Source: Candidatus Omnitrophota bacterium (GTDB taxonomy: Bacteria; Omnitrophota; Gorgyraeia; Zapsychrales; Zapsychraceae). Taken from it: a DNA stretch of 64,000 bases. The stretch spans positions 702,361-766,360 of the forward strand of contig JBFWOS010000001.1 of assembly GCA_050250375.1 (NCBI GenBank), in the 5' to 3' direction. Within the stretch, counting starts at the first letter, position 1. The number at the start of each line of letters is the position of its first letter. Both the position numbers and the translations under genes were made by a program. The notes beneath the pieces are model-generated. The model had not been told where the DNA came from. It searched no databases and saw nothing but the letters and a program-made list of their open reading frames with translations. Below are positions 16,585-42,760 of the stretch, one piece after another.

Positions 16585-16587
16585 AAC

Positions 16588-16707: not shown

Positions 16708-16715
16708 CGGCTTGT

Positions 16716-18592: not shown

Positions 18593-19131
18593 TATTTCCG
18601 GTTGTAATAATTCCCGTGTTCAATCAGCAGTGTCGGGCGGTTGTCTTTTCGTTCAAGGGCCTCTTTGTACGCCGGAAAAATATCTTCCGGTTCCTCAAGC
18701 TCAACTACATGGACCGTGGTCAGGAGCCGCCGGAAGGCCTCGGCATAATTCCCGACGTGCTGATGGCCGGGGTTGACCGGTTCATCCGGGCCGGTGGCCA
18801 CACGGATAATCACTCTGGGGACAAGCCGGTCCCCGCTGATCGCGGGTATTTTATCGAGCATGTTGGCCATATCACCCGTGGCCAGCAGTAAAAAATTCTG
18901 ACGCGGATAAACACTGATCGGAATATATCCGGCCAGCGCCATGCCGATGGTAAACTGCATCTGGAAACTCTCGTTGATCGGCATCTCAAGCGTCTTTTCC
19001 CGGGGCACATCCCGCAGGGTCTGGAACATAAACGTACCGGGTCCGGCGACCGTCTGCCCGACAAACATCGTATTCGGCTGCTGCGCCAGCCACTCCATGG
19101 TCCTTTTTAGTTCATCAAAATATTTCATCAA
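18592..19131 (-). CDS. TPP-enzyme Pyr-domain subunit (2-oxoacid dehydrogenase E1-beta / transketolase central domain-like), short form without the C-terminal E2-binding domain
   Basis: FVGQTVAGPGTFMFQTL...PINESFQMQFTIGMALAGYIPI resembles the E1beta N-domain. Only 179 aa. Confidence 0.6.
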   Translation of the reverse strand: MMKYFDELKRTMEWLAQQPNTMFVGQTVAGPGTFMFQTLRDVPREKTLEMPINESFQMQFTIGMALAGYIPISVYPRQNFLLLATGDMANMLDKIPAISGDRLVPRVIIRVATGPDEPVNPGHQHVGNYAEAFRRLLTTVHVVELEEPEDIFPAYKEALERKDNRPTLLIEHGNYYNRK

Positions 19132-19141
19132 TCAAATCCGT

Positions 19142-19756
19142 TTAAAATTTTATTTTCCAGCCCAGCCCGGAATGGGGGTATTCATTCTTGTATTGAAAAT
19201 AAATGATTTTCTTTTCGTATTTAGTCCCTTTAAACCACGGGTCAGGGCTTCCCCAGACTTCGCGGGTATCGGTCATGACGCTCAGACCGTTATCGCCGAC
19301 AATAAATTTGACAGGCAGATCAAAATTGACCGCGTATTTCACCGCTTCGTGAAAGATCCCTGTTTCCGCCGACATGTCCCCGCAAAAAAGAAAGGCACGT
19401 CCATTTTTCTTCTGGTTTTTCAGGCTCCAGGCCGTGCCCACGGCCGTGCCCATCAGGCTGCCGACAATCCCTGAACACAGGACTTTGTGTTCCGGAAAAC
19501 ACAGCGCGATGCTGTTCCCCTGAAGGATCGATTCTTTCAACGCATCCCGGGGAACACCTTTCAACAGGGCCAGTTCATGCGAGTCCCAGAACCCGAACAC
19601 AAAATCATCCGGCCCGATATTTTCTTCCCGGAAAATCCGGATCAGGGCATCTTCCCGCCCCGCCCTCAGATGGACCGGAGCGCGGATAACGCCCTGGGCG
19701 AAGATTTCAGCAATTTCCTTTTCGAAACTGATCAGATCGTCTTTAGTAATATTCAT
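19142..19756 (-). CDS. TPP-binding PP-domain subunit (E1-alpha / transketolase N-terminal-like), short form
   Basis: TPP motif GDMSAETGIFHEAVKYAVNFDLPVKFIVGDNG (GDG-x26-NN pattern). 204 aa. Confidence 0.65.
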   Translation of the reverse strand: MNITKDDLISFEKEIAEIFAQGVIRAPVHLRAGREDALIRIFREENIGPDDFVFGFWDSHELALLKGVPRDALKESILQGNSIALCFPEHKVLCSGIVGSLMGTAVGTAWSLKNQKKNGRAFLFCGDMSAETGIFHEAVKYAVNFDLPVKFIVGDNGLSVMTDTREVWGSPDPWFKGTKYEKKIIYFQYKNEYPHSGLGWKIKF

Positions 19757-19759
19757 TTG

Positions 19760-19918
19760 TTAAAAAATCGTGTAAATAAAAGGAGTCACCGCCGAAGTCT
19801 GAGCAAAAATGATCAGCAGACTTAAGATCACCAGAATAATGATGATCGGCGCGAGCCAATATCTTTTTCTGACCTTAAGAAACTCCCAGAATTCTTTTAA
19901 GATTGTAATTTTTGCCAT
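19760..19918 (-). CDS. SxtK-like small membrane protein (DUF5989-type), 52 aa
   Basis: MAKITILKEFWEFLKVRKRYWLAPIIIILVILSLLIIFAQ... is a single TM helix. Not in the ORF track because it is too short. Confidence 0.5.
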   Translation of the reverse strand: MAKITILKEFWEFLKVRKRYWLAPIIIILVILSLLIIFAQTSAVTPFIYTIF

Positions 19919-19920
19919 AA

Positions 19921-20466
19921 TTAAAATTGTTTGGTGTAGTGTTCCTGTTTAAACTCTTTAATTTCACGTTTGATCCAATAAGAATCCGCTTTCGGATCAA
20001 GCGCCCTGGTCAGATAATCCTTTTTCGCCATTTTTAAAAATAAGGCCACCGGTGTAAAAACCAGATAATACATCAATCCCAAAATGACGGCCGTTAAAAC
20101 ATGGCTGATCGCGTGCCCGCCCTTCATCCATACTTTGTAAACAGGCGCCAGCTGATCGACGTTAAGGATTGTCGTTATCAAAAATGCCGCGGCTATACAG
20201 AAAAACAACATCGGGAGCGGCGTCGGGTGGGACTGAAAAATCCGGAAAGCCGTAAATATCAAAACAAGGAATATCCAGGCATTTGCCTTCGGGGTCAGCT
20301 CGGAAGTCTTCGTCGTTACCCACAACACACCGGAAAAACCGGCCAGCAGGATCAGCACGGACACCGCACTAAAGCCAAGTTTATAGCTGTGAAAGCAGAT
20401 CAGGTACGGGATAATCAAGGACATCCCGTAACCATACACATATAAATCTTTTTTTTCTTTTTCCAT
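19921..20466 (-). CDS. SxtJ-like membrane protein
   Basis: Four predicted TM helices. Start chosen at MEKEKKDLYV, 1 nt after the carbamoyltransferase stop; the track extension overlaps the upstream gene by 146 nt. Confidence 0.55.
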   Translation of the reverse strand: MEKEKKDLYVYGYGMSLIIPYLICFHSYKLGFSAVSVLILLAGFSGVLWVTTKTSELTPKANAWIFLVLIFTAFRIFQSHPTPLPMLFFCIAAAFLITTILNVDQLAPVYKVWMKGGHAISHVLTAVILGLMYYLVFTPVALFLKMAKKDYLTRALDPKADSYWIKREIKEFKQEHYTKQF

Positions 20467-20467
20467 C

Positions 20468-22285
20468 TTAATCCAGAACCAGCGACATATTTTCTTTCTT
20501 ATACTTGTCCGACTTGGGCTGAAGGTTTTTATCCAGGATATAATTCTCAAGGACCAGGTAATCCATATCGGTGCACATAAAACACCGGTAGGCATCCTGG
20601 GGACTGCACACAATCGGCTCTCCCCTGATGTTGAACGATGTATTGATGATGACCGGGCATCCCGTCAGTTTGTCGAATTCCTTAATGATCTTGTAATACA
20701 ACGGATTGTCCGTTTCGTCAACCGTTTGTATCCGGGCCGAATAGTCAACGTGTGTCACCGCCGGAATGACGGAACGGCAGATTTTCAGTTTATCGATCCC
20801 GCTGGCCGACACTTTCTTCGATTCCGCGTTAATTTTCTTTTCGTTAACGTCCGCCACCATCAGCATGTATGGGCTGACCGTCGTATAATCAAAATACTCG
20901 GACACTTTTTCCTTAAGCACACTCGGAGCAAACGGGCGGAAGGATTCCCGGAACTTGATTTTCAAATTGATGATGGACTGCATCTTCTCGGAACGGGCAT
21001 CCCCGATAATGCTCCTGGCGCCCAGCGCTCGCGGGCCGAATTCCATCTTTCCGACGACCAGGCCGATCACCTTCTGATCATTGATCAAATGGGCGACCTT
21101 CAACGGCAGTTCGTCCGGATTGATACGGGTAAACGGCAGATTCTCCTGGCGTAAAAATTTTTCAATCTCTTCATTGTCGAAACGCGGCCCCAGATACGAT
21201 CCCCTTTGCAAATCATTGATCCCGTCCACGTCCCGCTTATTTTGTAAATATTGATACCAGATGAATGACGCCACCCCCAGGGCCCCTCCGGCATCACCGG
21301 CCGCCGGCTGGATCCAGATATTTTTGAACGGACCTTTTTTTAAAATCTTCCCGTTCCCGACACAGTTAAGAGCAACACCGCCGGCCAGACACAAATTGTC
21401 GGCCTTTGTCTGGGCATAAACATAGTTCGCCATCTTCAGCATAATTTCTTCCGTGACTTCCTGGATGGAACGGGCCAAATCCATGTGGTGCTGTTTCAAT
21501 TCCGATTCCGGGTCGCGGCGGGGATGGCCGAACAATTGGTGGAATTTTGAATTCGTCATCGTCAACCCGACGCAATAGTTGAAATAATCCATGTTCAGCC
21601 GGAACGATCCGTCATCTTTAATGTCGATCAGATTCTGCCTGATTAAATCTGTATACTTCGGCTCACCGTATGGAGCCAGCCCCATCACCTTGTATTCACC
21701 CGAATTCACCCGGAATCCCAGATAATACGTGAACGCTGAATAGAGCAGTCCCAAAGAATGGGGAAAATTAATTTCACCCAGAAGCTTGACGCCGTTGTCT
21801 TCACCCACTCCGTAACTGGTCGTGGCCCATTCACCGACGCCGTCCATCGTCAGGATCGCCGCTTTTTTAAAGGGCGACGGAAAAAACGCCGAAGCGGCGT
21901 GCGATTCGTGATGTTCGGTAAAAATGATCTCCCCGTCATAATTCAATTCACGAAGGAGAAGATCTTTGAGGAAGATTTTTTCTTTCAGCCAGACCGGCAT
22001 GGCCTTCAAAAAGGATTGGATGCCCAAAGGAGCGTAACTCAGGTAGGTCAATAGCAGCCGTTCAAATTTCAAAAAGGGTTTATCATAAAACCCCACGTAA
22101 TCCACCTCATCAATCGATATGTTCCCTTCCTTCAGACAAAATTCAACGGCGTTTTTGGGAAACGATTCATCGTGTTTCTTGCGGGTAAACCGCTCCTCCT
22201 GGGCCGCGGCGATGATTTCCCCGTCCCTGATCAAACAGGCCGCGCTGTCATGGTAAAATGCGGAAATTCCTAAAATATTAACCAT
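20468..22285 (-). CDS. NodU/CmcH-family O-carbamoyltransferase
   Basis: MVNILGISAFYHDSAACLIRDGEIIAAAQEERFTRKKHD and HHESHAASAFF motifs. 605 aa. Confidence 0.85.
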   Translation of the reverse strand: MVNILGISAFYHDSAACLIRDGEIIAAAQEERFTRKKHDESFPKNAVEFCLKEGNISIDEVDYVGFYDKPFLKFERLLLTYLSYAPLGIQSFLKAMPVWLKEKIFLKDLLLRELNYDGEIIFTEHHESHAASAFFPSPFKKAAILTMDGVGEWATTSYGVGEDNGVKLLGEINFPHSLGLLYSAFTYYLGFRVNSGEYKVMGLAPYGEPKYTDLIRQNLIDIKDDGSFRLNMDYFNYCVGLTMTNSKFHQLFGHPRRDPESELKQHHMDLARSIQEVTEEIMLKMANYVYAQTKADNLCLAGGVALNCVGNGKILKKGPFKNIWIQPAAGDAGGALGVASFIWYQYLQNKRDVDGINDLQRGSYLGPRFDNEEIEKFLRQENLPFTRINPDELPLKVAHLINDQKVIGLVVGKMEFGPRALGARSIIGDARSEKMQSIINLKIKFRESFRPFAPSVLKEKVSEYFDYTTVSPYMLMVADVNEKKINAESKKVSASGIDKLKICRSVIPAVTHVDYSARIQTVDETDNPLYYKIIKEFDKLTGCPVIINTSFNIRGEPIVCSPQDAYRCFMCTDMDYLVLENYILDKNLQPKSDKYKKENMSLVLD

Positions 22286-22413: not shown

Positions 22414-23268
22414 TTACTTCAGAACTATATCCAACATTTTAATATATTTAGGATTTAAAGGCGTGCCATCATTCTTAATTGATTGTGAAATATAAAGAAG
22501 CGCCTCTGCCTGTCCATACTTGTTTTCAGTCCGAGTTACCAAGTAAAGAGCAGTATCGAAATCTTGCTGATCACTGTAATATTTAATCATAGGAAGGGTT
22601 GTATCGCTCCAGAAAGAAGTATCTTGTGATAACATTACGACATCAGTAGCCTTTTTATACTCTTTCAGCCCACTGTATGCCCCCGCAATACCAAGTAAAT
22701 GGCCATTCGCGTAATTTCCTGTTTTAAATTCTTCAATCGCTATGCCAACTAATTCAAGAGCCATTTTATAATCACCGGTTTTTTCATACAAGGCGTGTGC
22801 AGTATTAGCTAAAGCGTACGGGTCTTTTTGAGAAGCCGTAACGGCTTCCTCGTATTTCCCACTTTTTACCAATAACTGCACCGTATCCCATTTTTTCTGA
22901 TAACTCGGTATAGATGTTACTAAATAGCTGGTACCCGTGGTATCCTTTTTATATCTAGCATAAAGTTCCATTAGCTTTTTATGTTTATCGTCAATTCCCA
23001 AATTTTTATACTCGTCCGCAATATTTTTTAATATAGATAACTTTTCTGGCACAAAGCTATAATCTGAATGCAATATCCAAAAAGAATAATTCAATAGCGT
23101 CGCTTTCGCATTCTCTCCTTCTATTGATTTAATAATCATACCGTTAACCGGCTTTGCGGATAGATTTGGTCTAACGTTCTTAATCGAGCGTCCCTCAAGA
23201 AAGACTAATGCGCAGTAAACCAAGAAGGCTCCCACAATAAACAAAAATAAAACAGCTAATTTCTTCAT
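22414..23268 (-). CDS. Hypothetical membrane-anchored protein with TPR-like helical repeats
   Basis: N-terminal TM helix. AT-rich gene. Confidence 0.45.
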   Translation of the reverse strand: MKKLAVLFLFIVGAFLVYCALVFLEGRSIKNVRPNLSAKPVNGMIIKSIEGENAKATLLNYSFWILHSDYSFVPEKLSILKNIADEYKNLGIDDKHKKLMELYARYKKDTTGTSYLVTSIPSYQKKWDTVQLLVKSGKYEEAVTASQKDPYALANTAHALYEKTGDYKMALELVGIAIEEFKTGNYANGHLLGIAGAYSGLKEYKKATDVVMLSQDTSFWSDTTLPMIKYYSDQQDFDTALYLVTRTENKYGQAEALLYISQSIKNDGTPLNPKYIKMLDIVLK

Positions 23269-23359: not shown

Positions 23360-26300
23360 CTACAAACAATTTCCAGATTCACTGCCTGCATTGATAGTAG
23401 CTGATCCACTGATACTACAATCTCCAACAGTGGCCGCTTGCATATGAAAATTATTTGTTACAGTAACTTCTGAAGCTGCACTTAAGATGGCGTCGTCACC
23501 ACCAATCATATCAAATGAATCCGCGGTAATCTCTGCTCCCAAATTTATTTTGACGTCACTTGTTGACGTTGACCCCGTTGAGATCATTGAAGCACCCTCA
23601 GTAACTGTGACTTCGGATTCTGTACCAATCTCCACCTGTCTGTCGGCGCTCATTTCGAGGCTGGCAGCGGTAATCGCCGAGCTAATGCCAATCAATGCCT
23701 TACTGTTTGAACTCGTTCCCGTTGAAATGATCTCAAGTTCATCGTCAACATCCAAAATCATACCTGGACCTGTAGAGGCCTCTTGATTTGCTTCAAGTCG
23801 AACACTACCCGCATGAATTGTTGAAGTCTGCCCCATATGGGCTTTATTAGTGGAAGAGGTGCCCAGCGATTTAATGAGAAGCGGCCCGTCAACGTCGACT
23901 TGGGCGTTGCTGTAGATTTGTGCTATCTTGTATGCTTGCAAGGTCAATTCCGTGGCATTAATCGTTGAATTTGAACCCAGCTCTGTATCCCCGGTTTCTG
24001 AAACTAACGTCACGAATGTCCCGTTGATTGTCATTCCGTTCGAATTTGCGACCCCGGTTCGCCCATCAATGCAAATCCTTTCACCTGTGAGAACTTTTCC
24101 GGTTGCTATGGTTACCTTACAGGGAGAATGAATGTCAATGTTATCCATCGTGACATTGTAGTTAATTGTTAAATTTCTGTAATAAGTTCCCGTATAATCA
24201 TAATCAACAAGATAGTCTTCCAACTGTGAATCATTTGTAACGGTCGTTGTTGATGAACAGGTAACGCCAACCAGGTAGTCAGTTTTTATAGTACATGGCT
24301 CTTGCATAGGGTCGTTAATTGTGATCGTCAAATCCGGTGATCCTGGTGCATCTTCCCTATTTCCAACTTGGTCGGTTGCTATAGTATAAAACGAATATGT
24401 AGAACCGTTTACACCGACGAAGGACGTGAACGTTCCCGTGGTGGTTAAGGTTTCAGCATACGGACCTGAGTTTTCAGATACATAGATGGTGTATTCTTTT
24501 ATCCCCGAATGCGCGTCACTTCCTGACCACGAAATGTCAAAACTGGTCAAAGTGCCCGTTGATGCCATACTGTTCATGGAACTGGACGGTTTTGTATCAT
24601 CAATGGTGTTCAGCCAGGTATTGGTGGTGATTGGACTATTAGTGTCAAAAACTATGCTCGCACTATTGATTATTTCATCATTTGTTTCTACTGAATCTTT
24701 CGCCCGCACGGAAAATGTCACAAACCCATCGCCTTCGGGAGGATTATCATTAGGCGGTAAGAATCCAGCATTCGGATCATCCGTAAACATATGTGACTCC
24801 GGATCAAGAGAAATAAATTTCCACACGACGTCACCGGAAGCTGTGTTTAATGCAACCTCTATCCTCAAGATTAAGTCATTGTCAGGTCGCAAATCTACCT
24901 CGGTTATAAACTCTTGAATTCCGCTAGGCAGATTGATTATTTTTTCCGCAACTCCAATAGGTCCTAATTCAAAAGTACTTAAATCCAGAACCGTTGTATC
25001 TAGTTGGTCCGAAACGATAACTTCCTGCGCGGGTGCGCTTGCCGATTCGATATTCTCAAAATAAATTATATATTGCAAAGGCTGTCGTTTAGCAATATAT
25101 TTTTCTGAACCAAAACCCTGCGGACCAACAATAGCGTTAGGGTCTCGTGAAGTCACAAGAAAAATTATTTTCGCTAACTTATTTGCACCCCACCAAAAAT
25201 CCCAAGCTGTACTAACAACTCCTGAAGTGAGTTCCCATGTCACAATAGCTTTATCTATTAGCTGATTAAGTTCAGTCCATTTCAATACTTCATTAAACCC
25301 ACAGGTCGCTTTGCCCAGAGTCTGACCACAAAGTGATATCCACGGTTGTTCCCTTTGTTCCACAACACCATTGACCAATTTTCCATACGTTAGCAAAGAA
25401 TAAAATCCCAAACAAGATGTGTCGTATGGCGTTTCGATAGAACATCCCGTACCATTTGAGCTCCATTCACAAAATGTAACATTCGCCATAAGCACGGGTA
25501 AATTTTCTCTAATCCTGGAAACTAATGCAGGCATTTCTCCTGGTCTAATAGGTCTCAGGCCATATAAATGTTCTATTTGTATAGTTTTCGTTCCACCTCC
25601 GGGTAAATCAATCGTAACTTCTCCATCCTTGATGTCATTAAAAGGTATCTCAACAGGTCCCACCCCTCTTAGATTTAGGTATGTTTTATCATCCAATCGT
25701 GTTCCAATATAACCTTCCCCTTCAGGTTTTATGCTGGAGAACTCAGAATCATATATATTAAACCAGTCCAGAATACCATCCGGGGCATCTTCATTCGCCT
25801 TGTACCTCTGATTGGCATATTTTAGAGTTGTTGAAGGATTATTTGTTGCAGTTAGCGAGTCAGGCAATGGAAGTGTATTGTTTGTTGGTTCAAAATGTGT
25901 GACATTGTCACCAAAGCCAAAATCAATCACAGTACTACCAAAATTAAGACTGATGTTTCCAGAAGATAACGACGATTTTATTCTAATGGGAAAACTACGA
26001 GATGAATGAACCGGCAAATTTGCAACTATAAAACCTGCAACTGTGTCTTCAGCCAAATTCTTAAATGAGTCTGAGAATTCTGGGATCAGATAATCGACCT
26101 CATCAGGTATACCAACAAATAATTCCGCTGAAGTAATATCATTGTTTCCAATATTTCCATATGTAACCAAATAAGTTTGCTCTCTGTCGGGACGCATGTC
26201 TGTTCTACCAATAATATCCATCCACAGCCCACTTGGTGCTCCATCTTCAACGGTAAAAGCATTTTCACTTGTTATGGTATTTCCGGAATTTATTATCACA

Positions 26301-28135
26301 ATGGTCCAATCACCCTGTGCTTTTCCAGCTAGATCAAATGTCGCTTTCAACACTAGACCGTTATTTAGAATTTGAAGAAAGTCCCCTTCTATATCGTCTT
26401 CGCCAGATTTGGTTAACATAACATGGGTTCCTTCATCAAATACGCTGCCTGAAAACGTAATTGTTAAATTCCCAGTATCACCCCCTCGATCCGGATTGAT
26501 TGCCAACACGGTTTGTTGCTGAACAACTGTCCCATCATCACCATCTTCACCAACACCGTTTCCGCCGGTTGCGGTCGTAGTTCCGGTAAATGTTTCATTT
26601 TGACGGTGATAAATAGCTATTCGTCCACCGCCACCACCGCCGCCGGCGGCTGAACCGCCTACTAACTGGCTGTTTCCACCATTGGCCGTAATTACTCCGC
26701 TCCCGGTAAAATTCTCCGTAATGACATATATACTACCACCCGATCCGCCGCCAGACTGACTCCCCTGCGGCAATCCCATCCCGCCATTTGCAGATAATAC
26801 CCCGTTTACTGTTAACGTATCAGCAATATTTAGTTGAATCTTTCCACCACCTGTGCCGCCGCTACTAGGCGTGTAGACATTATTAATTGTAAATCCCGGT
26901 CCGGCACCCCCGCTGCCAAAATCTACCGGGGCTGTTGGTGAACCGTATGCAATCCCTCCCTGAGCTGTGCCACCTTCGCCGCCATACCCACCGCCTCCGC
27001 CGCCTTGCCCCTGATTCTCTAATGCGGCCCCAACTCCCATCCCGCCTTTGAACCCTTTGGAATCCGCGGAGACTTTTGAACCGGAAGTTATGGTGAGATT
27101 ATTGGCTTTTAAGAACAGGTTCCCCTCAATCAACGAGGTTCCTGTGACCGTTACGTCTTTGATATTGAAAGTTTCCTCACCATTAAGAAAAAATGACGAA
27201 GCGCCATCCAAAATTAACTGGGTCCCTGAAATAGTTACAGTCCCATCCGTAGTTGTCACGGAAGCATCATCGAGAGTAATGGTATCAAATTCAAGAGGAC
27301 TGTCATTCAACTGAAACCGCCATTGATGTCCAGCGATAAACTCATTGTTAGCCATGTCAATAAATCCGACCGTTCCGTCACCACCATCACCGCTTTCACC
27401 CAATTCTGTATGCCCGTGCCCACCTATGGCCCTTGCTGAACCGGTAAATGTTGACGATTCATAGTATACGGCAATGCGCCCGCCGCCACCACCGCCGCCG
27501 CGTAATGAACCTCCGTTTCCTCCATTAGCAACGATATCCCCTGAACCGGCCAGAGTACTTGTCGTAATATAAATTCCGCCGCCCGCGCCGCCGCCGCTTC
27601 TAAGATCACACTGAAATACACTTTCCCCATTAGCCGAAAGAGTCCCGCTCACCGTCAATGTATTTGCAACATCAAGCCAAATTGCGCCCCCGCCTCTGCC
27701 GCCGCTTTGATTACCGCCGCACACTGCCCCGCCCCCGCCGCTTCCCATTTGAAATGGCTGTGTGGCTGATCCATACCAAGGTCCTTTAGCCGACAGGATA
27801 GGCGTCGTTCCACCATTCCCACCGTGCCCGCCGCCACTTCCCCCAGTCACCGATGCTGAACCTGCCCCGGGGCCCTGATTGGCATTGTATCCCTTTTTAT
27901 CGGCGCTGATCCTTGATCCCGATGAAACTGTTATATTATCGGCGGTGATGCGGACTGTTCCTTCCAGCGTCAACGCCGCGTTGTTGGATACGGTCACATC
28001 ATCATAGGTGTATGCGCCGGTTGTAAGAGTGGTGTTGGTGGTTACGGTCAAGTCTGCGGCGAAAGCTGAATGACTAATTAAGAGAAAAGAAAGCAAGACG
28101 AAGGATTGTATAAATTTGAAAGGCCGTAGAATCAT
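23360..28135 (-). CDS. Giant secreted glycine-rich beta-solenoid protein with Ig-like/FN3 domains (adhesin-like)
   Basis: Signal peptide MILRPFKFIQSFVLLSFLLISHSAFA. Two tandem ~230-aa modules rich in GGxGG rungs (e.g. ANGGNGGSLRGGGGGGGRIAVYY / ANGGNSQLVGGSAAGGGGGGGRIAIYH). A clear FN3 domain (DISWSGSDAHSGIKEYTIYVSENSGPY...). Ser/Thr-rich beta-helix-like C-terminus. Confidence 0.75.
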   Translation of the reverse strand: MILRPFKFIQSFVLLSFLLISHSAFAADLTVTTNTTLTTGAYTYDDVTVSNNAALTLEGTVRITADNITVSSGSRISADKKGYNANQGPGAGSASVTGGSGGGHGGNGGTTPILSAKGPWYGSATQPFQMGSGGGGAVCGGNQSGGRGGGAIWLDVANTLTVSGTLSANGESVFQCDLRSGGGAGGGIYITTSTLAGSGDIVANGGNGGSLRGGGGGGGRIAVYYESSTFTGSARAIGGHGHTELGESGDGGDGTVGFIDMANNEFIAGHQWRFQLNDSPLEFDTITLDDASVTTTDGTVTISGTQLILDGASSFFLNGEETFNIKDVTVTGTSLIEGNLFLKANNLTITSGSKVSADSKGFKGGMGVGAALENQGQGGGGGGYGGEGGTAQGGIAYGSPTAPVDFGSGGAGPGFTINNVYTPSSGGTGGGKIQLNIADTLTVNGVLSANGGMGLPQGSQSGGGSGGSIYVITENFTGSGVITANGGNSQLVGGSAAGGGGGGGRIAIYHRQNETFTGTTTATGGNGVGEDGDDGTVVQQQTVLAINPDRGGDTGNLTITFSGSVFDEGTHVMLTKSGEDDIEGDFLQILNNGLVLKATFDLAGKAQGDWTIVIINSGNTITSENAFTVEDGAPSGLWMDIIGRTDMRPDREQTYLVTYGNIGNNDITSAELFVGIPDEVDYLIPEFSDSFKNLAEDTVAGFIVANLPVHSSRSFPIRIKSSLSSGNISLNFGSTVIDFGFGDNVTHFEPTNNTLPLPDSLTATNNPSTTLKYANQRYKANEDAPDGILDWFNIYDSEFSSIKPEGEGYIGTRLDDKTYLNLRGVGPVEIPFNDIKDGEVTIDLPGGGTKTIQIEHLYGLRPIRPGEMPALVSRIRENLPVLMANVTFCEWSSNGTGCSIETPYDTSCLGFYSLLTYGKLVNGVVEQREQPWISLCGQTLGKATCGFNEVLKWTELNQLIDKAIVTWELTSGVVSTAWDFWWGANKLAKIIFLVTSRDPNAIVGPQGFGSEKYIAKRQPLQYIIYFENIESASAPAQEVIVSDQLDTTVLDLSTFELGPIGVAEKIINLPSGIQEFITEVDLRPDNDLILRIEVALNTASGDVVWKFISLDPESHMFTDDPNAGFLPPNDNPPEGDGFVTFSVRAKDSVETNDEIINSASIVFDTNSPITTNTWLNTIDDTKPSSSMNSMASTGTLTSFDISWSGSDAHSGIKEYTIYVSENSGPYAETLTTTGTFTSFVGVNGSTYSFYTIATDQVGNREDAPGSPDLTITINDPMQEPCTIKTDYLVGVTCSSTTTVTNDSQLEDYLVDYDYTGTYYRNLTINYNVTMDNIDIHSPCKVTIATGKVLTGERICIDGRTGVANSNGMTINGTFVTLVSETGDTELGSNSTINATELTLQAYKIAQIYSNAQVDVDGPLLIKSLGTSSTNKAHMGQTSTIHAGSVRLEANQEASTGPGMILDVDDELEIISTGTSSNSKALIGISSAITAASLEMSADRQVEIGTESEVTVTEGASMISTGSTSTSDVKINLGAEITADSFDMIGGDDAILSAASEVTVTNNFHMQAATVGDCSISGSATINAGSESGNCL

Positions 28136-28205: not shown

Positions 28206-29159
28206 TTAACATTTTTGATGCCGCTGTTCAAACCAGTCGAATGTTTCCTTAAGCCCCTCATTAAGCTTGACCTTCGGCGTCCACTTTAAAACTTTTTTGG
28301 CTAATGAAATGTTCGGCTGCCGGGTCTTCGGGTCGTCAACGGGTAAGGGTTTATAGACAATCTTGCTTTTGGTTTTGGCCATCGTAAGGACCAGCTTGGC
28401 AAACTCCATGATCGTGAACTCATCCGGATTCCCCAGATTCACCGGACCGGAATGGTTTGACTTGATCATCCGGACGATCCCGTCCACCAGGTCGGAATAA
28501 AAACAGAACGACCGTGTCTGCTGTCCGTTACCGTAGACCGTTAAATTTTTGTTGTTTAAAACCTGGTCGATGAAATTCGGGACGACCCGTCCGTCCTTGA
28601 TCCTCATCCGGGGGCCGTAAGTGTTAAAAATACGGATGATCTTCGCGTCCACCTTGTGATAACGGCGGTATGCCATGGTCATCGCTTCCGCGAACCGTTT
28701 GGCTTCGTCATACACGCCGCGCGGACCGATGGGATTAACATGGCCCCAGTAATCTTCGGTCTGTGGATGGACCTGCGGGTCCCCATAGACTTCCGACGTT
28801 GACGCGATCAGGTACCTGGCCTTTTTCAGTTTGGCCAGCCCCAGGGAATTGTGCGTCCCTAACGCGCCGACCTTTAATGTCTGGATCGGATAGTTCAGAT
28901 AATCGACGGGTGATGCCGGTGAAGCGAAATGCAGGACATAATCGACATCGCCTTTGATGGTTATTTTTTTGGAGACATCGTGTTTCTTAAAGGCAAAGTC
29001 CTTGTTTTTCTTCAAATGTTTTATATTGTTCAGGTTCCCTGTGATCAGGTTATCGACACAGAGCACCTTGTTTCCTTCCGATAAAAACCGGTCACACAAG
29101 TGGCTCCCCAGAAAACCGGCCCCGCCTGTAATGACCACCACTTTCTTGTTCTTACTCAT
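28206..29159 (-). CDS. UDP-glucuronate decarboxylase (UDP-xylose synthase-like SDR)
   Basis: [35 protein letters not shown] closely matches the UXS family. Confidence 0.85.
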
Positions 29160-29176
29160 ATTTAAACTCCTTAAGT

Positions 29177-30478
29177 CTAAAAACGGATGACATTTTTATT
29201 GATTCCGGAACCGTAAATGTTTTTGATATCGAAGATCAGCCGGGCATTGCTCAGGACCAGTTTCCAGTTCACATTCGTGTGATCCGTCGCGGTAATCACG
29301 GCATCGTATTTCGCGACCGTGCTTTTGGTTAATTCAATGCTTTTCAAATCAAGGCCGCCGATCTTCAGGTACGGGATGATCGGGTCAAAATAATCCACCC
29401 GGCATTTCTTCTCCTGCAGGATTTCGATCAGCTTCAGCGGCGGAGATTTGCGCAGATCTTTGACGTCTTTTTTATAGGTCGCGCCGATCACCAGGATCCG
29501 GGCGCCCTGAAATTTCTTTTTCCTTAATTGAAAGGCCTGCTTTAAATAGTCAACCGCGTAAGCCGGCATGTTCGAATTGGTATCCGCGGATAATTTGATA
29601 TATTTGGAACTGAACCCATGATGTTTGGCCTTCCAGTAAAGATAAAGCGGATCATCGGGGATACAATGCCCGCCGACACCCAGGCCCGGATAAAACGGCA
29701 TGAACCCGAACGGTTTTGTTTTGGCGGCCTCGATTACCTCCCAAACATCAATCCCCATCTTGTGGCACATCATGGCCACTTCATTGATCCAGCCGATGTT
29801 GATGATCCTGAACGAATTCTCGAGGAGTTTGGTCATTTCCGCGGCTTTGGGCGATGACACCACATGGATTTTATTAATAATCTTTTTGTACAATAATTCG
29901 GTCAGTTCACCGCTGGCCGGATCCATCCCGCCGACCACCTTTGTAATGCGGGTCACATCATATTTTTTATTGCCCGGATCAATGCGCTCCGGCGAGAAAG
30001 AAAGAAAAAAGTCCCGCCCCGCTTTTTTGCCGTTCTTTTCCAGTTCCGGCAGGATAAGTTCTTCGGTCGTGCCCGGATAAGTCGTACTTTCCAGGATGAT
30101 CAAAGAATTTTTCTTGAAATATTTCCGGATGGTCCTGACCGCGCTGAGAATGTAGGTGATATCCGGCGTGTATTTTCTTTTTAAAGGCGTCGGCACGCAG
30201 ATGATCAGCACGTCCAGATCTTTAATTTCACTAAAATCGGTGCTGGCGGTAAATTTCCCGCTTTGCACAACTTTCGATAACTGCGCCGTCGGGATGTCAG
30301 AAATATAACTTTTGCGGCGGTTGACCTGACTCACACGGTCCACATCCATATCCAATCCGCGGACTTCATACCCGGCCTTCGCGAAATTAACAGCGAGCGG
30401 AAGGCCGACATAACCTAATCCGATGACGCCGATTTTCGCTTTCTTTTGATTGATTTTTTGTTTCAATTGCGTGGACAT
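29177..30478 (-). CDS. Nucleotide-sugar dehydrogenase (UDP-GlcNAc/ManNAc dehydrogenase WbpA/TviB/WecC-like)
   Basis: [30 protein letters not shown]-terminal Rossmann. Central and C-terminal UDPG_MGDP_dh domains. Confidence 0.8.
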
Positions 30479-30499
30479 ATGATTCCTCTTTATCGTTTA

Positions 30500-31819
30500 T
30501 CAGGCCGGACGTCCGATCCCGTAATATTCAAATCCCAGTTTATCCAGGCCTTTATCATGATAAAAGTTACGGCCATCGAATATCACCGGGTGATTCATCG
30601 ATTTCTTGATTCTTTCAAAATCCAGTTCACCAAACTCTTTCCATTCGGTAATCAGCAGCAGACAGTCGCACCCTTTGGCTAATGTGTACGCGTCGCTGCA
30701 ATACTGAATATCCTTAACCATCTTCTTGGAATTCTCTACCCCTTGCGGATCATAAGCCTTGATTTTCGCGCCTTCCTTCTGCAAGGCATGGATAATCTCG
30801 ACCGACGGCGCGTTGCGCATGTCATCGGTATCAGGCTTGAAGGCCAGCCCGAGCAAACCGATTGTTTTGTTTTTGACTATCCACATCTTGTCTTCAATCA
30901 GCTTGAGGAATGATTTTTTCTGGTCCTCATTGATCTCACGGACCTCTTCCAACAGTTTGAACTTATACCCGCTTTTCTCGCTCAGGCGGATAAACGCGTC
31001 AACATCTTTCGGGAAACAGCTCCCTCCGTACCCGATCCCGGCGTTCAGGAACTGCCGGCCAATGCGTTTATCATACCCCATCCCTTCGGCGACTTTGAGG
31101 ACATCCGCCCCCAACTGGGAACAAATCTGGGAAATGGCATTGATGAACGATATCTTTGTCGCCAAAAATGAATTGGACGCGTGTTTGATCAGCTCCGCCG
31201 AATTAATGTTGGTCACGACCATTTTCGGTTTTAACGGCTGATAAATCTCGCGTAATAATTTCTCGGCTTTCTTACTTTCGACACCGATCACCACCCGGTC
31301 CGGATTCATAAAATCTTCAACCGCGGAACCTTCCCTCAGGAATTCCGGATTTGAGGCGACGTCGAAATCAATGGTCAGCTTATCGCCTTTGCGGTATTTC
31401 TTCGGGATATATTTACGGATGGTCTGGGCCACCTTCTTGCCGGTCTCGGCCGGAACGGTGGATTTCTCGATCACGAGTTTATATCCGGTCATGCTCTCGG
31501 CGATTTCTCGGGCCACATTCTCGACATAGGTCAAATCCGCGTCCCCATTTTTCTTGGAAGGCGTTCCCACCGCGATAAAAATAACCGTCGCCTCTTTGGC
31601 CCCGTCCTTGATGGAATAGCTGAACGACATCCTTTTATTTTTGATATTCTTTTTGAGGAGATCTTCAAGCCCCGGCTCATAAATCGGGACCAACCCTTTT
31701 TTTAGTTTGTTGATTTTTGTCTTGTCCACATCAATGCACGTAACCTGATGCCCGATCTCCGCTAAACAAACTCCTGTGACGAGGCCGACATACCCGGACC
31801 CTACAATTGCGATTTTCAA
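30500..31819 (-). CDS. ugd: UDP-glucose 6-dehydrogenase
   Basis: MKIAIVGSGYVGLVTGVCLAEIGHQVTCIDVD...GGSCFPKD (catalytic Cys). Confidence 0.85.
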   Translation of the reverse strand: MKIAIVGSGYVGLVTGVCLAEIGHQVTCIDVDKTKINKLKKGLVPIYEPGLEDLLKKNIKNKRMSFSYSIKDGAKEATVIFIAVGTPSKKNGDADLTYVENVAREIAESMTGYKLVIEKSTVPAETGKKVAQTIRKYIPKKYRKGDKLTIDFDVASNPEFLREGSAVEDFMNPDRVVIGVESKKAEKLLREIYQPLKPKMVVTNINSAELIKHASNSFLATKISFINAISQICSQLGADVLKVAEGMGYDKRIGRQFLNAGIGYGGSCFPKDVDAFIRLSEKSGYKFKLLEEVREINEDQKKSFLKLIEDKMWIVKNKTIGLLGLAFKPDTDDMRNAPSVEIIHALQKEGAKIKAYDPQGVENSKKMVKDIQYCSDAYTLAKGCDCLLLITEWKEFGELDFERIKKSMNHPVIFDGRNFYHDKGLDKLGFEYYGIGRPA

Positions 31820-31853: not shown

Positions 31854-33995
31854 TTATTGACGGATGGCGTCAGAACCGCTTTGTTTTCGCTCAAAAGTGG
31901 TCCCGAAATCAAATCCCATATCCGGAAAAGCCTTTAAGCGGAACAACAGCAGGAATTCCGTGCCGTCACCCGTCGTATCGTTGATCTTCAGATCCATAAT
32001 CCAGGAGTGCAGGTCCCTGGTCAGGGTGTATTCCTGCTCTTTTAGCTGGCCGCTTTCTACGTCGACACGCACGTAATTTCTAAACGCCCATTTAGGATTG
32101 ATCTTATAGATAAAATCGGTGGTAATCTGGTCATCCGCATCGTGGCTATAACGTTTGCCTAATCCGAAGGTCCATTTCGGGCCGCCATTGACATACATAT
32201 CGAAATTGGCCGTGTCCATATGCCCATCTCTTGTATCATAATCCGAATCAAAATACAAGGTCAGCCACTTATTCGGCTTAAAATCCACATCCGCCGTGAC
32301 CGTATCAAAACCGCTGTCGCGGTGGTCTTTGGCCAACCGGTAATCAACGCCGAAAATGGTCCGCAGGAGTTCCACGGTTTCCCCCCCGCGTTTGGTCTGT
32401 AATTTGTTTTCCACAGAGAAATTAAGATTATGGAGCTGATCCAGTTCATCAATCTCGTCAAACGAATTGAGTTCCGTGGGAAGGAGTGTCGGTTTGGTGG
32501 TGATCTCATAATTGATGGACGGGGTGATAATATGACGCAGCCGTGATATGTTAAGCCCCAGGGTATCCGTTTCCAAATCATAGATTTTATAAAATTTGGT
32601 GCTTAAACTGGCCCCGGTCCTGTAAACCTGCCGTAATTCATCTGTAATATCCGCATCCTCCGTTCGGGTATAAAACGTCTCTCGCCCGCCGACAAACGGT
32701 TTAACTTCAAAGATACCGGCCTTCATGGGATAAGAAATCTCATAATCCGTGTCCACCCGTTTCGTGCTTTCGCGGACCTCGCTCGGGGAGGCGTCTTTTT
32801 TGACCAGACTCACAAAAGAAGAAACATTTTTAAAGTAAAACCCGGAATCGTAGATTTCCGTGTTGTTCAGGTCGTAGCGCAATTCCGGCAAACGTTCGAC
32901 ATCGCCGACAAAACGGTTCACCCGGACATCCGACCTGAGACTGAGGGTTCCTCTGGGGAGAGTGTGGGTCATCAAAAAGAACGTATCAGGAAACGAATCT
33001 TCCTCGAATTCCCGTTCAAAATAGTCTTTTAGAAAATTATGATCGCTAAGCTTATAGTATTGGGCAATGGCGGTCGTGCGTTCATCGAGAATCCACTTGT
33101 GCCGCCATTCGATCTTATAGCGGTCCCTTTCTTGGGTGGGCGACAGCCGTTCATCCCAAATCCGGTCGGCATCAATCTTTCGTTCGTGGGTAAAATAAGT
33201 CCGCAGCATACCGGTCCCGTAGTTATCCGTCTTGTATTCGAAATCCGCCCCGGACCCTACATCCAGCAGTTCGCGGTAGTCCAGGTGGAGTGTCCCTTTA
33301 ACACGGTCCGACGCATAAAACCGGTATTGGGAAAGCAAAAACATGCCCCAATCACTGTCATACCCCGGGGACAGCAGCAGTTTTGGTTTTGTATCGTCGA
33401 TCCTGTGCCAGAACCGCGGCAGATACATCAAAGACACATCGCTCAGTTTCATCTGGACGCCGTGGGCGACGACCTTGTCTCCCGGATAGACCTCAATCCG
33501 CTTTGATGCAATACGGTATTCGGGTTTATCATAATCGCTGGTGGTCAGGTACCCGTTGGTCATGACGATCTTATTATCTTTTTCCATGGAAAGCTTTTCC
33601 CCGCCGCCGTAATATGGATACGCTAAAATCTTGGCCCCCATAAAATCCCCGGTCATGGTGTTGTAATCAAATGTCAATTCATTCCCGCGCAATTCACCGT
33701 GTTCCGTGATCAGCCGGACATTTCCGTTAGCCTTCGCCATATTTTTTTCCTGATAAAATTCGGCTTTATCACATATGAGGGTTGTCTTTTTATATTTGAT
33801 GACAACATTGCCCTGGACCATCACCTGGTTTTTCTCACGGTCATACTCAAGCACATCGCCGTTAAGTTCGACTTTTTCTTTATCAGGCTGGGCCAATCCG
33901 GCCGGAGGGTTTACGAACGGCAGAAAAACAAAAAGAAATGAAAGACATATCAGGGACAGCCGGTGAACACATTTATGGCGAGGTTTATGTTCCAA
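31854..33995 (-). CDS. lptD: LPS-assembly outer-membrane protein LptD (OstA family)
   Basis: Signal peptide, then an OstA-like N-domain (GDVLEYDREKNQVMVQGNVVIKYKKTTLICDKAEFYQEKNMAKANGNVRL) and a large C-terminal beta-barrel. Confidence 0.8.
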   Translation of the reverse strand: MEHKPRHKCVHRLSLICLSFLFVFLPFVNPPAGLAQPDKEKVELNGDVLEYDREKNQVMVQGNVVIKYKKTTLICDKAEFYQEKNMAKANGNVRLITEHGELRGNELTFDYNTMTGDFMGAKILAYPYYGGGEKLSMEKDNKIVMTNGYLTTSDYDKPEYRIASKRIEVYPGDKVVAHGVQMKLSDVSLMYLPRFWHRIDDTKPKLLLSPGYDSDWGMFLLSQYRFYASDRVKGTLHLDYRELLDVGSGADFEYKTDNYGTGMLRTYFTHERKIDADRIWDERLSPTQERDRYKIEWRHKWILDERTTAIAQYYKLSDHNFLKDYFEREFEEDSFPDTFFLMTHTLPRGTLSLRSDVRVNRFVGDVERLPELRYDLNNTEIYDSGFYFKNVSSFVSLVKKDASPSEVRESTKRVDTDYEISYPMKAGIFEVKPFVGGRETFYTRTEDADITDELRQVYRTGASLSTKFYKIYDLETDTLGLNISRLRHIITPSINYEITTKPTLLPTELNSFDEIDELDQLHNLNFSVENKLQTKRGGETVELLRTIFGVDYRLAKDHRDSGFDTVTADVDFKPNKWLTLYFDSDYDTRDGHMDTANFDMYVNGGPKWTFGLGKRYSHDADDQITTDFIYKINPKWAFRNYVRVDVESGQLKEQEYTLTRDLHSWIMDLKINDTTGDGTEFLLLFRLKAFPDMGFDFGTTFERKQSGSDAIRQ

Positions 33996-36102: not shown

Positions 36103-36111
36103 AACTGCCTC

Positions 36112-42684: not shown

Positions 42685-42760
42685 TCTGAGAATCCCGTCC
42701 CCATAAGATAACGTAATTGATTAAAATCATTCCTGACTTCAATTAACCAACACGATTGAT

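Follow-up and report, generated by a model that had tools for sequence, protein, structure and literature searches.

The open reading frame at positions 23360..28135 (minus strand) of the window, the 64,000-nucleotide stretch of Candidatus Omnitrophota DNA analyzed here, encodes what we take, with moderate confidence, to be a Sec-exported, envelope-associated and surface-exposed fibrillar, adhesin-like protein that forms one half of a mosaic paralogue pair. The frame starts with ATG and runs uninterrupted for 1591 aa. Its product is a chain of independently recurring domains, in which a signal peptide is followed by two glycine-rich beta-solenoid modules, two Ig-like domains, a fast-diverging centre, DUF7619, an FN3-like domain and a cysteine-capped beta-helix (Table 1). 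The N-terminus, as read from the sequence, combines a basic n-region, a hydrophobic core and an AxA site directly before ADL, and we regard the product as a real protein that is exported via this predicted Sec-type signal peptide.

Table 1. Features of the 1591-aa protein and their positions in the window
Feature	Residues (aa)	Window positions	Strand	Basis or detail
Signal peptide (MILRPFKFIQSFVLLSFLLISHSAFA)	1-26	28058..28135	-	Read from sequence; cleavage expected after AFA
Beta-helical lead-in of module 1	27-56			
Gly-rich beta-solenoid module 1	57-255	27371..27967	-	Module HMM E=1.4e-47
Inter-module beta-rich connector	256-335	27131..27370	-	AF2 pLDDT 88-97, all beta
Gly-rich beta-solenoid module 2	336-545	26501..27130	-	Module HMM E=3.6e-57
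Sub-motif pairs, starts in modules 1/2	67/346, 159/440, 181/462, 203/484, 213/498, 229/515, 246/529			
Two Ig-like beta-sandwiches	560-736	25928..26458	-	AF2 pLDDT 60-85
Variable centre	737-995	25151..25927	-	Low identity between paralogues
Variable centre, S/T/N-rich linker				
Variable centre, small beta domain	777-864			
Variable centre, Cys-rich helical part	878-984			
DUF7619, starts SRDPNAIVGP	996-1177	24605..25150	-	PF24595 E=3.7e-19
FN3-like beta-sandwich	1184-1274	24314..24586	-	Confident AF2 beta-sandwich; PF00041 sub-threshold
Terminal Cys-capped beta-helix	1286-1591	23363..24280	-	Profile search; AF2 pLDDT 70-94 (aa 1319-1591)
Terminal motif CSISGSATINAGSESGNCL-COOH	1573-1591	23363..23419	-	C-x(14-19)-C-[LF]

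The two glycine-rich modules carry the same seven sub-motifs in the same order, the two copies of each being offset by 279-286 aa, as an earlier note on this DNA had described. BLASTP of aa 1-330 against aa 331-620 aligned them over 181 columns at 45% identity (E=6e-17), and since this value holds with compositional adjustment, the match reflects more than glycine bias. The earlier note had taken the repeat for an internal tandem duplication; the repeat itself stands, but a local event does not, as the modules are 45-54% identical to one another and 49-59% identical to modules of proteins in other phyla, similar to the 54% found locally between the two. Each is 81-86% identical in amino acids to its positional counterpart in the paralogue. 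Because the two modules differ as much from each other as from those of other phyla, the module appears to be an old repeat unit, and on this comparison of sequences we conclude that the ~200-residue block is an old, mobile repeat rather than the product of a local duplication. It recurs at 2-9 copies per protein in at least 1,676 protein clusters, among whose names we saw Verrucomicrobiota, Planctomycetota, Omnitrophota and Poribacteria, and it lies N-terminally and in tandem in large proteins with dockerin, CarboxypepD_reg, PKD, cadherin-like, DUF11 or Rhs domains; the connector at aa 256-335 is kept in two-module homologues. Neither a further module nor a further terminal domain was found elsewhere in the 64-kb window, and tblastn of module 2 against phage genomes gave no match.

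AlphaFold modeled the module confidently as a beta-solenoid (pLDDT 89, pTM 0.84), which, together with the signal peptide, agrees with the earlier description of an exported glycine-rich beta-solenoid protein. In the AF2 models, the block of module 1 (pLDDT mostly 83-98) contains three long parallel strands, AIWLDVANTLTV, GIYITTSTLA and RIAVYYESS, and that of module 2 has a pLDDT of 74-97. The glycine stretches of 40-70 residues are modeled with confidence and almost no DSSP secondary structure, and might pack as polyglycine-II-like segments. As had been suspected, the modules fall in no named family: Pfam has no model for them, and the only curated model that detects them, the AgmC model NF047640 of NCBIfam, gave a weak, partial AgmC_N match in which aa 72-234 align to profile positions 217-405 of 412 (E=1.3e-10, 40.8 bits against a cut-off of 275). 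Because of this low score and the coverage of about half of the model, the protein is not an AgmC equivalog; it has one module type in common with the N-terminal domain of Myxococcus AgmC ('adventurous gliding motility protein AgmC'), on whose molecular role a search of the open-access literature found no relevant paper. Searches of the PDB by sequence, with the module profile or the whole protein, returned chance-level matches only, and Foldseek with the module model found nothing below E=0.15 (TM about 0.2), the only neighbors, all weak, being pertactin, IgA1 protease, Hbp, EtpA/TPS, Fap2, tailspikes and lyases. Right-handed beta-helix passengers are elongated solenoids with long parallel strands like the module model, but the 1591-aa protein has no C-terminal beta-barrel, TPS domain or Pfam match of that kind, and the long glycine stretches have no counterpart in such passengers or in tailspikes. 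The best structural matches to one module were giant-virus 'collagen-like'/PA14 proteins in BFVD (E 1e-5 to 4e-4, probability 0.99-1.0, about 300 aligned columns, 18-20% identity, TM 0.18-0.26), a kinship that is unproven, the matches being to predicted models and the TM low. Judged from its model, the module could represent a new solenoid fold.

The unnamed terminal domain was defined by profiles A2 and A4 with the 1591-aa protein as seed, members being recognized by a ~300-aa profile match that ends in C-x(14-19)-C-[LF] at the protein terminus, both of which the 1591-aa protein has. In the AF2 model, aa 1319-1591 form a three-stranded beta-helix in which each rung holds three short strands and rung lengths alternate between about 21 and 27 aa, in agreement with the second beta-helix that had been placed behind the Ig and FN3 segments; cysteines lie at C1293, C1339, C1355, C1573 and C1590. 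Pfam, NCBIfam and the PDB held no match to the domain, and a profile search of the PDB stayed at chance level. The profile search for relatives recovered 211 representative clusters (50% identity) at E<=1e-3, 132 of them at E<=1e-10, with Omnitrophota, Desulfobacterota, Binatia, Fischerbacteria and others as named sources. Among the 150 best matches, 85 have the domain at the exact C-terminal end, with 0-7 residues after the last Cys, and all but one of these (84/85) carry C-x(14-19)-C among their final 25 residues; searched with a degenerate DNA pattern derived from the terminal motif, GTDB genomes yielded 8 loci, each a true family member. The passengers joined to the domain are unrelated to each other (FG-GAP, NosD, LamG+NHL, SBBP, DUF7933+TSP3, MopE). 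The translation does end in SGNCL, from which the earlier note had read the lack of a recognizable C-terminal sorting signal; we revise this claim, as SGNCL belongs to the conserved terminal motif of a recurrent domain. In 25 of the 150 best matches, however, the domain is N-terminal, with a probable signal peptide before it and cadherin, PKD or Rhs regions after it. It therefore cannot be called a strictly C-terminal signal, and instead of a foot it may form a binding tip at the distal end. We tentatively propose that it could be a previously unrecognized sorting or anchoring domain; a new solenoid fold for the glycine-rich module is a second possibility. As a sorting or anchoring element it could serve diderm, mostly uncultured bacteria, in a role like that of the T9SS sorting domain in Bacteroidota, with other machinery.

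Between these two blocks lies a conserved cassette that consists of an Ig domain, a CARDB-like Ig domain, a variable insert, DUF7619 and the FN3-like domain. The Ig-like segments, already noticed in the letters, are beta-sandwiches in the AF2 model at about aa 570-736; the second opens with LWMDIIGR...YGNIGNNDI and is CARDB/DUF11-like by sequence motif, and aa 562-680 are common to the cassette homologues (E 1e-8 to 1e-34). DUF7619 was detected in two stretches with 69.5 bits against a Pfam gathering score of 27 and is modeled with a pLDDT of 77-93, and Foldseek gave matches to Cna, BcpA, EbpB and AgI/II with a probability of 1.0, DUF7619 itself matching the first three. For the FN3 domain of the earlier note speak a confident AF2 beta-sandwich, a Foldseek match to the cohesin+FN3 structure 2w1n, conservation of the region in all homologues with the cassette and a W/G/D/Y pattern kept in 14 homologues, but the PF00041 score (10.4 bits, E=0.79) lies below the cut-off of 25. 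The Ig...DUF7619-FN3 cassette recurs elsewhere, and in some of the proteins that have it a T9SS sorting domain (PF18962 Por_Secre_tail or PF13585 CHU_C, families of C-terminal domains of 80-100 aa) comes next; in P0127 and P0133 the FN3-like match stops ~93-102 residues before the protein end.

DUF7619 is a predicted CnaA-like isopeptide domain, with the Lys-Asp-Asn triad K657/D695/N764 in L7WFS8, and the stalks of fibrillar adhesins typically contain isopeptide domains in tandem, above all those of the related DUF11/CLIPPER (PMC12617251). Mapped onto the 1591-aa protein by spacing and conservation rather than by coordinates, Asp1043 and Asn1157 of the predicted triad are retained, and the only near-invariant Lys (the K of DPNxK, the fifth domain residue as in L7WFS8) is Ile1002, whereas the other 13 of the 14 aligned homologues, the paralogue among them, have Lys. 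The full triad is not found in this copy, and the isopeptide cross-link has probably been lost from it through the change of Lys to Ile. The protein has DUF7619 and the Ig...DPNxK-DUF7619-FN3 cassette in common with the isopeptide-stalk fibrillar adhesins of diderm bacteria (DUF11/CLIPPER, DUF7507, DUF7619; PMC12617251), but differs from them in its single DUF7619 instead of a tandem array, in the Lys to Ile change and in its head, the unnamed glycine-rich solenoid. Fibrillar adhesins with a T9SS domain follow a like logic of N-terminal functional domains, a beta-sandwich stalk, a dedicated terminal domain and Sec-dependent export, whereas the 1591-aa protein has the 306-aa Cys-capped beta-helix after the cassette and no match to PF18962, PF13585 or any other T9SS cargo model in Pfam and NCBIfam. 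Measured against fibrillar adhesins in general, a class with a stalk of repeated beta-sandwich domains, an adhesive domain, an anchor and demonstrated binding, stalk-type and terminal domains are present, the stalk is short and the anchor is hypothetical.

Homologues of the variable centre were found only in P0002 and P0004, and a search with the centre alone missed even the query itself. Its aa 878-984 are poorly modeled (AF2 pLDDT 24-36). An SC[IL]G motif common to P0001, P0002 and P0004 raised the candidates of a thioester domain and an NlpC/P60-type centre, both of which we rejected for want of a conserved His or Gln partner, the AF2 confidence in this region being too low to judge. The second copy in the same genome is a mosaic relative, with amino-acid identities of 76-90% in the N-terminal modules, 86-88% in the FN3-like region and 18-44% in the centre (aa ~600-1000), and silent-site identities of ~0.5 for the modules and the FN3-like region against ~0.19 for the centre. 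We read this pattern of sequence conservation as one that a variable surface protein should show. Downstream of the paralogue, the C-terminal 133 aa recur as an orphan copy.

A cluster of genes for sugar-nucleotide and glycan biosynthesis surrounds the gene, and LptD is encoded 3.7 kb upstream, which points to a Gram-negative-type envelope. No conserved secretion, sorting or anchoring neighbor was found across the gene, its paralogue, two homologues and eight other terminal-domain loci, and a scan for promoters and terminators remained at background level. Because the paralogue, the homologues and the terminal-domain loci share no neighbor family, the glycan-cluster context of the window gene is probably incidental.

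Of the families named in the earlier note, autotransporter, Pmp and PE_PGRS models found no match in Pfam or NCBIfam. Autotransporter and Pmp models (PF03797, PF02415) had no match in the protein or in 20 module homologues, even at E<=10, and the modeled C-terminus is a beta-helix, not the 12-stranded beta-barrel of autotransporters; PE_PGRS proteins are mycobacterial and have an N-terminal PE domain ahead of GGA/GGN repeats, and no PE domain was matched in this Omnitrophota protein. The RTX/HemolysinCabind proteins, whose tandem GGxGxDxUx nonapeptides bind Ca2+ through Asp, are likewise glycine-rich and solenoid-forming, but have an uncleaved C-terminal T1SS signal and no N-terminal signal peptide, whereas the 1591-aa protein has an N-terminal signal peptide and cysteines. 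The earlier exclusion of RTX was borne out, as the regex GG.G.D had zero matches in the 1591 aa (no GGxGxD anywhere) and PF00353 had none at E<=1. A T1SS substrate was rejected as well, the protein carrying a Sec signal peptide at its N-terminus and, at its C-terminus, a folded Cys-containing beta-helix.

We infer the role of adhesin or S-layer protein from the modeled architecture. As a fibrillar adhesin-like protein, it would be exported by Sec, after which its cysteines would form disulfides; the terminal beta-helix would be the envelope-proximal foot, either an anchor or an element that outer-membrane export recognizes. The stalk would be made up of the Ig, DUF7619 and FN3 domains, and the rigid glycine-rich solenoids and the variable centre would be held off the cell as the surface that touches and attaches to a partner cell, prey or a substrate. 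The cell-facing end is assigned only by positional analogy with the T9SS homologues, and the opposite polarity, in which the Cys-capped beta-helix is a distal ligand-binding tip and the N-terminal solenoids or another interaction hold the protein on the cell, seems to us doubtful. An N-terminal position is usual for adhesive tips in many fibrillar adhesins, and the N-terminal copies of the terminal domain, which precede cadherin-like, Big_9 or PKD stalks or Rhs repeats, would suit such a tip, as would the finding that it forms a complete folded unit in any position (L006). Against this stand the exactly C-terminal copies that make up more than half of the best matches, the T9SS sorting domain behind the same cassette in some homologues, and the glycine modules, which are always N-terminal and distal in multi-domain relatives. 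We consider it improbable that the protein is instead a secreted glycan-active enzyme, one beta-helix of which would be a right-handed beta-helix polysaccharide lyase or hydrolase that attacks polymers of prey or of the environment, or else the surface glycan that the neighboring genes make for the cell itself. A catalytic role of the module is possible because Asp79, Tyr121, Ser123, Arg220 and their equivalents are conserved, and PL6 alginate lyases, polygalacturonase and phage depolymerases are among the weak Foldseek neighbors of the module; the protein is encoded amid glycan biosynthesis genes. Giant proteins of Omnitrophota have been linked to cell-wall degradation in a preprint (bioRxiv 10.1101/2023.11.21.568195); the passages retrieved from preprints on giant genes of Omnitrophota describe neither the glycine-rich module nor the terminal domain. 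However, no lyase, hydrolase, Beta_helix or NosD model matched, the fold matches of the modules to the PDB are as poor as reported above, neither the paralogue nor the homologues keep the genomic context, and the conserved positions of the module are overwhelmingly glycine.

There is a small chance that the protein is a subunit of a structural, S-layer-like lattice or sheath rather than an adhesin, being large, S/T-rich and exported, with a rigid solenoid that could pack laterally and adjoining glycan genes that could glycosylate it; SLH and other S-layer models of Pfam and NCBIfam gave no match, however, the architecture is fibrillar, and we judge diverged mosaic paralogues with a hypervariable centre to fit a variable ligand-binding protein better. 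Very improbable, finally, is a polymorphic toxin or a protein of contact-dependent competition that would deliver its variable part to neighboring cells. Fusions of the glycine modules to DUF6531, RHS and YD-shell domains in P0010 and P0015, the fusion of the terminal domain to RHS repeats in P0283, and the orphan 133-aa copy, which recalls the orphan toxin modules of polymorphic-toxin loci, speak for it, but a toxin domain was not detected, it is the C-terminus that is conserved rather than variable, and no conserved immunity-like gene is present, the downstream 284-aa ORF of the window gene being absent at the paralogue locus.

The Omnitrophota are uncultured, ultra-small bacteria that are thought to rely on other cells or to take them as prey, which makes their surface proteins likely contact points, and an attachment role for the fibrillar, adhesin-like protein would fit the host-dependent lifestyle proposed for them. 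Apart from two recurrent blocks that current annotation leaves blank, the protein is an ordinary member of a broad class of modular surface proteins. The glycine-rich solenoid module occurs in thousands of very large proteins of Verrucomicrobiota, Planctomycetota and Omnitrophota that are labeled "hypothetical", and the terminal domain, spread over several phyla, resembles an anchor or sorting element in its behavior. With family models for both, a large number of big orphan proteins would gain an annotation in one step, and such models would also offer a handle on how these bacteria display large proteins on their surface.

The protein encoded in the window at 23360-28135 is a large modular extracytoplasmic beta-solenoid and Ig protein of a well-known kind, whose gene ends in a stop codon at 23360-23362 and whose identical counterpart is already in NCBI, on a 1.23-Mb contig, deposited as hypothetical. 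Its N-terminus, MILRPFKFIQSFVLLSFLLISHSAFA followed by ADL, has all three regions of a Sec signal peptide as read from the sequence, and the LptD gene in the window shows that the organism possesses an outer membrane.

Features of the window, of the protein encoded at 23360-28135 and of its comparison with the paralogue
Feature	Position	Strand	Remarks
Gene of the protein	23360-28135	minus	single uninterrupted ORF, ATG start, 1591 codons
N-terminal modules			76-90% identity to paralogue
Ig-like domain	aa 562-680		shared with cassette homologues
Second beta-sandwich			begins LWMDIIGR...YGNIGNNDI
Variable insert	between second beta-sandwich and DUF7619 block
Central region	aa 600-1000		18-44% identity to paralogue
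DUF7619 and FN3-like block	aa 990-1280		starts S-x-DPN-x-K-x-GP
DUF7619			about 60% identity to paralogue
FN3-like region			86-88% identity to paralogue
Terminal helix			52-80% identity to paralogue
Surface-glycan and sugar-nucleotide cluster	12222-22285 and 28206-31819	minus	surrounds the gene
Split TPP-dependent E1-like enzyme	18592-19756		in the glycan cluster
284-aa ORF	22414-23268	minus	91 bp downstream of the gene
LptD gene	31854-33995		in the window
Two adjacent diguanylate cyclase (GGDEF) genes	35092-37407	minus	one with GAF domain
Heat-shock block including HrcA, DnaK, DnaJ, ClpB, Hsp20	41557-51128	minus
MORN_2-repeat protein	46954-47901	minus	adjoins heat-shock block

Every sub-motif listed in the earlier note occurs twice in the protein, in identical order and 279-286 residues apart (for example, NITVSSGSRISADKKGY at residue 67 and NLTITSGSKVSADSKGF at 346, or GGGGGGGRIAVY at 213 and GGGGGGGRIAIY at 498), and the two halves align with 45% identity over 181 columns (BLASTP with composition-based statistics, E=6e-17), which bears out the ordered repeat. 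The Gly-rich rungs are indeed not RTX, since neither a GGxGxD motif nor a match to an RTX family was found in the protein. The proposed internal tandem duplication holds in that the two modules are real, but they are not private to this protein: of 8,000 candidates scored in the database search, at least 1,676 protein clusters matched at E<=1e-5, the best 120 at E<=1e-123, and hit mapping located 2-9 tandem copies of a ~200-residue module, with a ~80-residue beta connector, towards the N-terminus of proteins of 1,300-2,700 residues. Their named sources are Omnitrophota, Verrucomicrobiota (Limisphaerales, Pedosphaera), Planctomycetota and Poribacteria, and the partner domains include CarboxypepD_reg, dockerin, PKD, cadherin-like, DUF11 and TSP3; in two homologues of the toxin-type Rhs/YD-shell class (P0010 and P0015), N-terminal Gly modules are partnered with DUF6531, RHS and YD-shell. 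By local alignment, modules 1 and 2 share 54% identity and are mutually no closer than either is to modules from other phyla (49-59%), whereas each is 81-86% identical to its positional equivalent in a paralogue from the same genome, so that the duplication is older than the protein itself. The Gly-rich module should thus be seen as a domain family. Pfam searches of the protein and of 19 further two-module homologues, with a threshold as loose as E<=10, gave nothing above chance for the module, and the only curated model to detect it was NCBIfam NF047640, the N-terminal domain of AgmC from Myxococcus gliding; with 40.8 bits against a cut-off of 275 and half of the model covered, this match is homology of one module and not AgmC membership.

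For aa 25-575, AlphaFold2 supplied with 20 aligned two-module segments produced a confident model (mean pLDDT 89, pTM 0.84) that supports the term glycine-rich beta-solenoid used in the earlier note, the fold having no close relative among solved structures. Each module opens with short beta-helical turns and continues into a Gly-rich stretch of 60-70 residues (...GPGAG...GGSGGGHGGNGG...YGS..P...GSGGGG...), which is modelled confidently (block pLDDT 80-95 in module 1) yet nearly lacks DSSP secondary structure; three long parallel strands follow (AIWLDVANTLTV, GIYITTSTLA and RIAVYYESS), the first two each trailed by a short strand and an additional Gly-rich turn. The few conserved non-Gly positions are Asp79, Tyr121, Ser123, Pro127, Ser132, Arg220 and a few hydrophobics. 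Foldseek against the PDB gave no match below E=0.15 (TM about 0.2), and its weak neighbours are without exception right-handed beta-helices (EtpA, IgA1 protease, PL6 lyases, P22 tailspike and pertactin), and the module profile found nothing meaningful among PDB sequences. Four targets in a viral predicted-structure library match the model over about 300 columns (E 1e-5 to 4e-4, 14-20% identity), three of them giant-virus proteins with a collagen-like or PA14 annotation and one without a name; these matches may point to a fibre-type domain, a suggestive but unproven likeness, and tblastn against phage genomes gave no match.

The conserved middle cassette emerged when a database was searched with aa 570-1591 and the domains of the hits were mapped (see table); its second beta-sandwich looks CARDB/DUF11-like from its opening sequence motif. 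According to PMC12617251, the family of the DUF7619 domain (PF24595, 69.5 bits) is predicted to form CnaA-like intramolecular isopeptide bonds, has DUF11/CLIPPER among its relatives and often occurs in surface proteins of Gram-negative bacteria. The AlphaFold2 model of aa 560-1591 has a mean pLDDT of 68.8, with 77-93 for DUF7619 and the FN3-like domain, and its Foldseek matches are in keeping with this assignment: they comprise multi-Ig chains, including alpha-2-macroglobulins and integrins, and probability-1.0 matches to the isopeptide proteins Cna, BcpA, EbpB and AgI/II. In L7WFS8 the isopeptide triad is K657, D695 and N764 in a domain that begins at residue 653 (PMC12617251), so that the lysine is the fifth residue and corresponds to the K of DPNxK. 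Of the 14 aligned homologues, 13 have Lys in this column, the paralogue (DPNEKFGP) among them, and only the window protein has Ile, where 25130-25150 encodes SRDPNAI (aa 996-1002, continuing SRDPNAIVGP); Asp1043 and Asn1157 are kept. Because the alignment puts Ile1002 in place of the predicted isopeptide lysine, the cross-link has probably been lost in this copy.

Insert content varies among cassette proteins: P0119 carries a Peptidase_C14 (caspase-like) match and P0122 an NlpC/P60-like motif recognized by eye (RYSCAGLCELAY). The swappable insert follows the second Ig-like domain and precedes the DPNxK/DUF7619 domain, and those of P0121 and P0125 contain hydrophobic Cys-rich helices. The insert of the window protein, with relatives detected in P0002 and P0004 only, consists of a small beta domain and a Cys-rich helical segment that is modelled poorly (pLDDT 24-36). 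The cassette may be a general scaffold displaying variable inserts. Several cassette homologues also carry a T9SS sorting domain (PF18962 or PF13585), and in P0127 and P0133 the FN3-like match stops about 93-102 residues short of the protein end.

The earlier note had seen no C-terminal sorting signal, and known export-signal families are indeed absent from the protein; its end, CSISGSATINAGSESGNCL, nevertheless belongs to a recurrent terminal domain. A profile built from the last 306 residues of the protein and its paralogue, scored against 1.84 billion representative proteins, yielded 211 clusters at E<=1e-3, 132 at E<=1e-10 and 40 at E<=1e-30. The domain ends no more than 10 residues from the C-terminus in 85 of the 150 best hits, and 84 of these 85 have two cysteines 14-19 residues apart within the last 25 residues (consensus C-x-I-x-x-S-A-x-I-x-A-G-S-x-S-G-N-C-[LF]; one sub-group ends ...GNCAxxLP). 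The model of aa 1319-1591 is a three-stranded beta-helix (pLDDT 70-94), and a conserved N-terminal cap motif (KTDY...C...SPC...C.DGR) contains additional cysteines; Pfam, NCBIfam and the PDB gave no match to the domain. Proteins bearing it range from under 100 residues, the shortest probably being fragments, to about 3,700, and their passengers are unrelated (FG-GAP repeats; NosD beta-helix with MopE motifs; LamG with NHL; DUF7948 with SBBP; DUF7933 with TSP3; DUF7619), the Gly module occurring in none of the 150 best hits. A degenerate DNA pattern of the terminal motif found eight loci in GTDB species genomes, each confirmed as a true member by an HMM match (E 1e-38 to 1e-109), under record titles of unclassified MAGs (one genome with two loci), Ca. 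Binatia, Ca. Fischerbacteria, a Pseudomonadales MAG and an "Enterobacteriaceae" MAG; one named protein with the domain comes from a Desulfobacterota MAG. In 25 of the 150 best hits, the complete domain is N-terminal, behind a probable signal peptide and before cadherin-like, Big_9 or PKD stalks or Rhs repeats, so it is not strictly a C-terminal signal. In P0283 the N-terminal Cys-capped beta-helix is fused to a toxin-type Rhs/YD-shell protein.

The paralogue, which shares the locus-tag prefix, has 1590 residues, 62% identity and an unrelated neighbourhood. Amino-acid identity between 23360-28135 and the paralogue's locus (L001 8001-12773) is strongly uneven. At four-fold degenerate sites, the identity of third positions is about 0.5 in aa 51-300 and aa 1151-1300; in aa 551-1000 it is about 0.19, probably near saturation. 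Since, in addition, the centre of the paralogue is closer to P0004, from another genome, than to the window protein, the pair forms a mosaic of recombination or gene conversion plus divergence. This suggests that segments underwent gene conversion or recombination, and we read the pattern as one that a variable surface protein would be expected to show. At 13680-14110, about 0.9 kb past the paralogue's stop on its downstream side, L001 (GCA_050181705.1 JBFXCX010000001.1) carries a 431-bp duplicate of the paralogue's own 3' end (92% DNA identity). There, ORF 13716-14117 codes for 133 aa, an orphan C-terminal half of the Cys-capped beta-helix (95% amino-acid identity), which might be a scar left by recombination or else a silent cassette; no comparable copy occurs in the window, downstream of its gene or elsewhere.

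The gene lies within a sugar-nucleotide cluster, with UDP-glucose dehydrogenase and epimerase genes on one flank and a carbamoyltransferase/SxtJ/TPP-enzyme/epimerase set on the other. Among the cluster's products are a DegT aminotransferase, a nucleotidyltransferase, a GHMP kinase, a B12-binding radical SAM enzyme, three epimerases/dehydratases, an SxtJ-like protein, a carbamoyltransferase and two UDP-glucose/GDP-mannose dehydrogenases. Neither the paralogue nor other homologues lie in such a setting, and eight other terminal-domain loci share no neighbour family; we therefore give the context little weight. The downstream 284-aa ORF has no Pfam match and no counterpart at the paralogue locus; by eye, a hydrophobic segment at its N-terminus is followed by a helical part that is possibly TPR-like. 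At 0.41 across 22-26 kb, the local GC content is low compared with the left flank (about 0.50). Components of c-di-GMP signalling, to which the GGDEF genes belong, are reported to be associated with Omnitrophota giant-gene loci (bioRxiv 10.1101/2023.11.21.568195).

We consider it roughly an even chance that the protein is exported via Sec, forms disulfides in its terminal domain and is displayed at the surface with the terminal helix cell-proximal, as anchor or export determinant, in which case Ig, DUF7619 and FN3 would serve as a stalk and the Gly-rich solenoids and variable centre as the distal contact surface. The proximal placement of the helix would follow from positional analogy with the T9SS sorting domain of cassette homologues, and the distribution of the terminal domain suggests an anchoring or sorting domain. 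In view of the N-terminal examples, the domain could be a tip rather than a foot, and the same architecture with reversed polarity is an unlikely alternative; less likely again is an enzymatic role, a lattice subunit is improbable, and toxin delivery very improbable.

The novelty is descriptive: a Gly-rich module that is very widespread and whose fold is predicted with confidence, but which has neither a significant solved neighbour nor a family model of its own, and an unnamed Cys-capped terminal beta-helix. As it stands, the finding is useful rather than startling to a specialist; it would gain weight if it is true that the terminal domain defines a new surface-display pathway.
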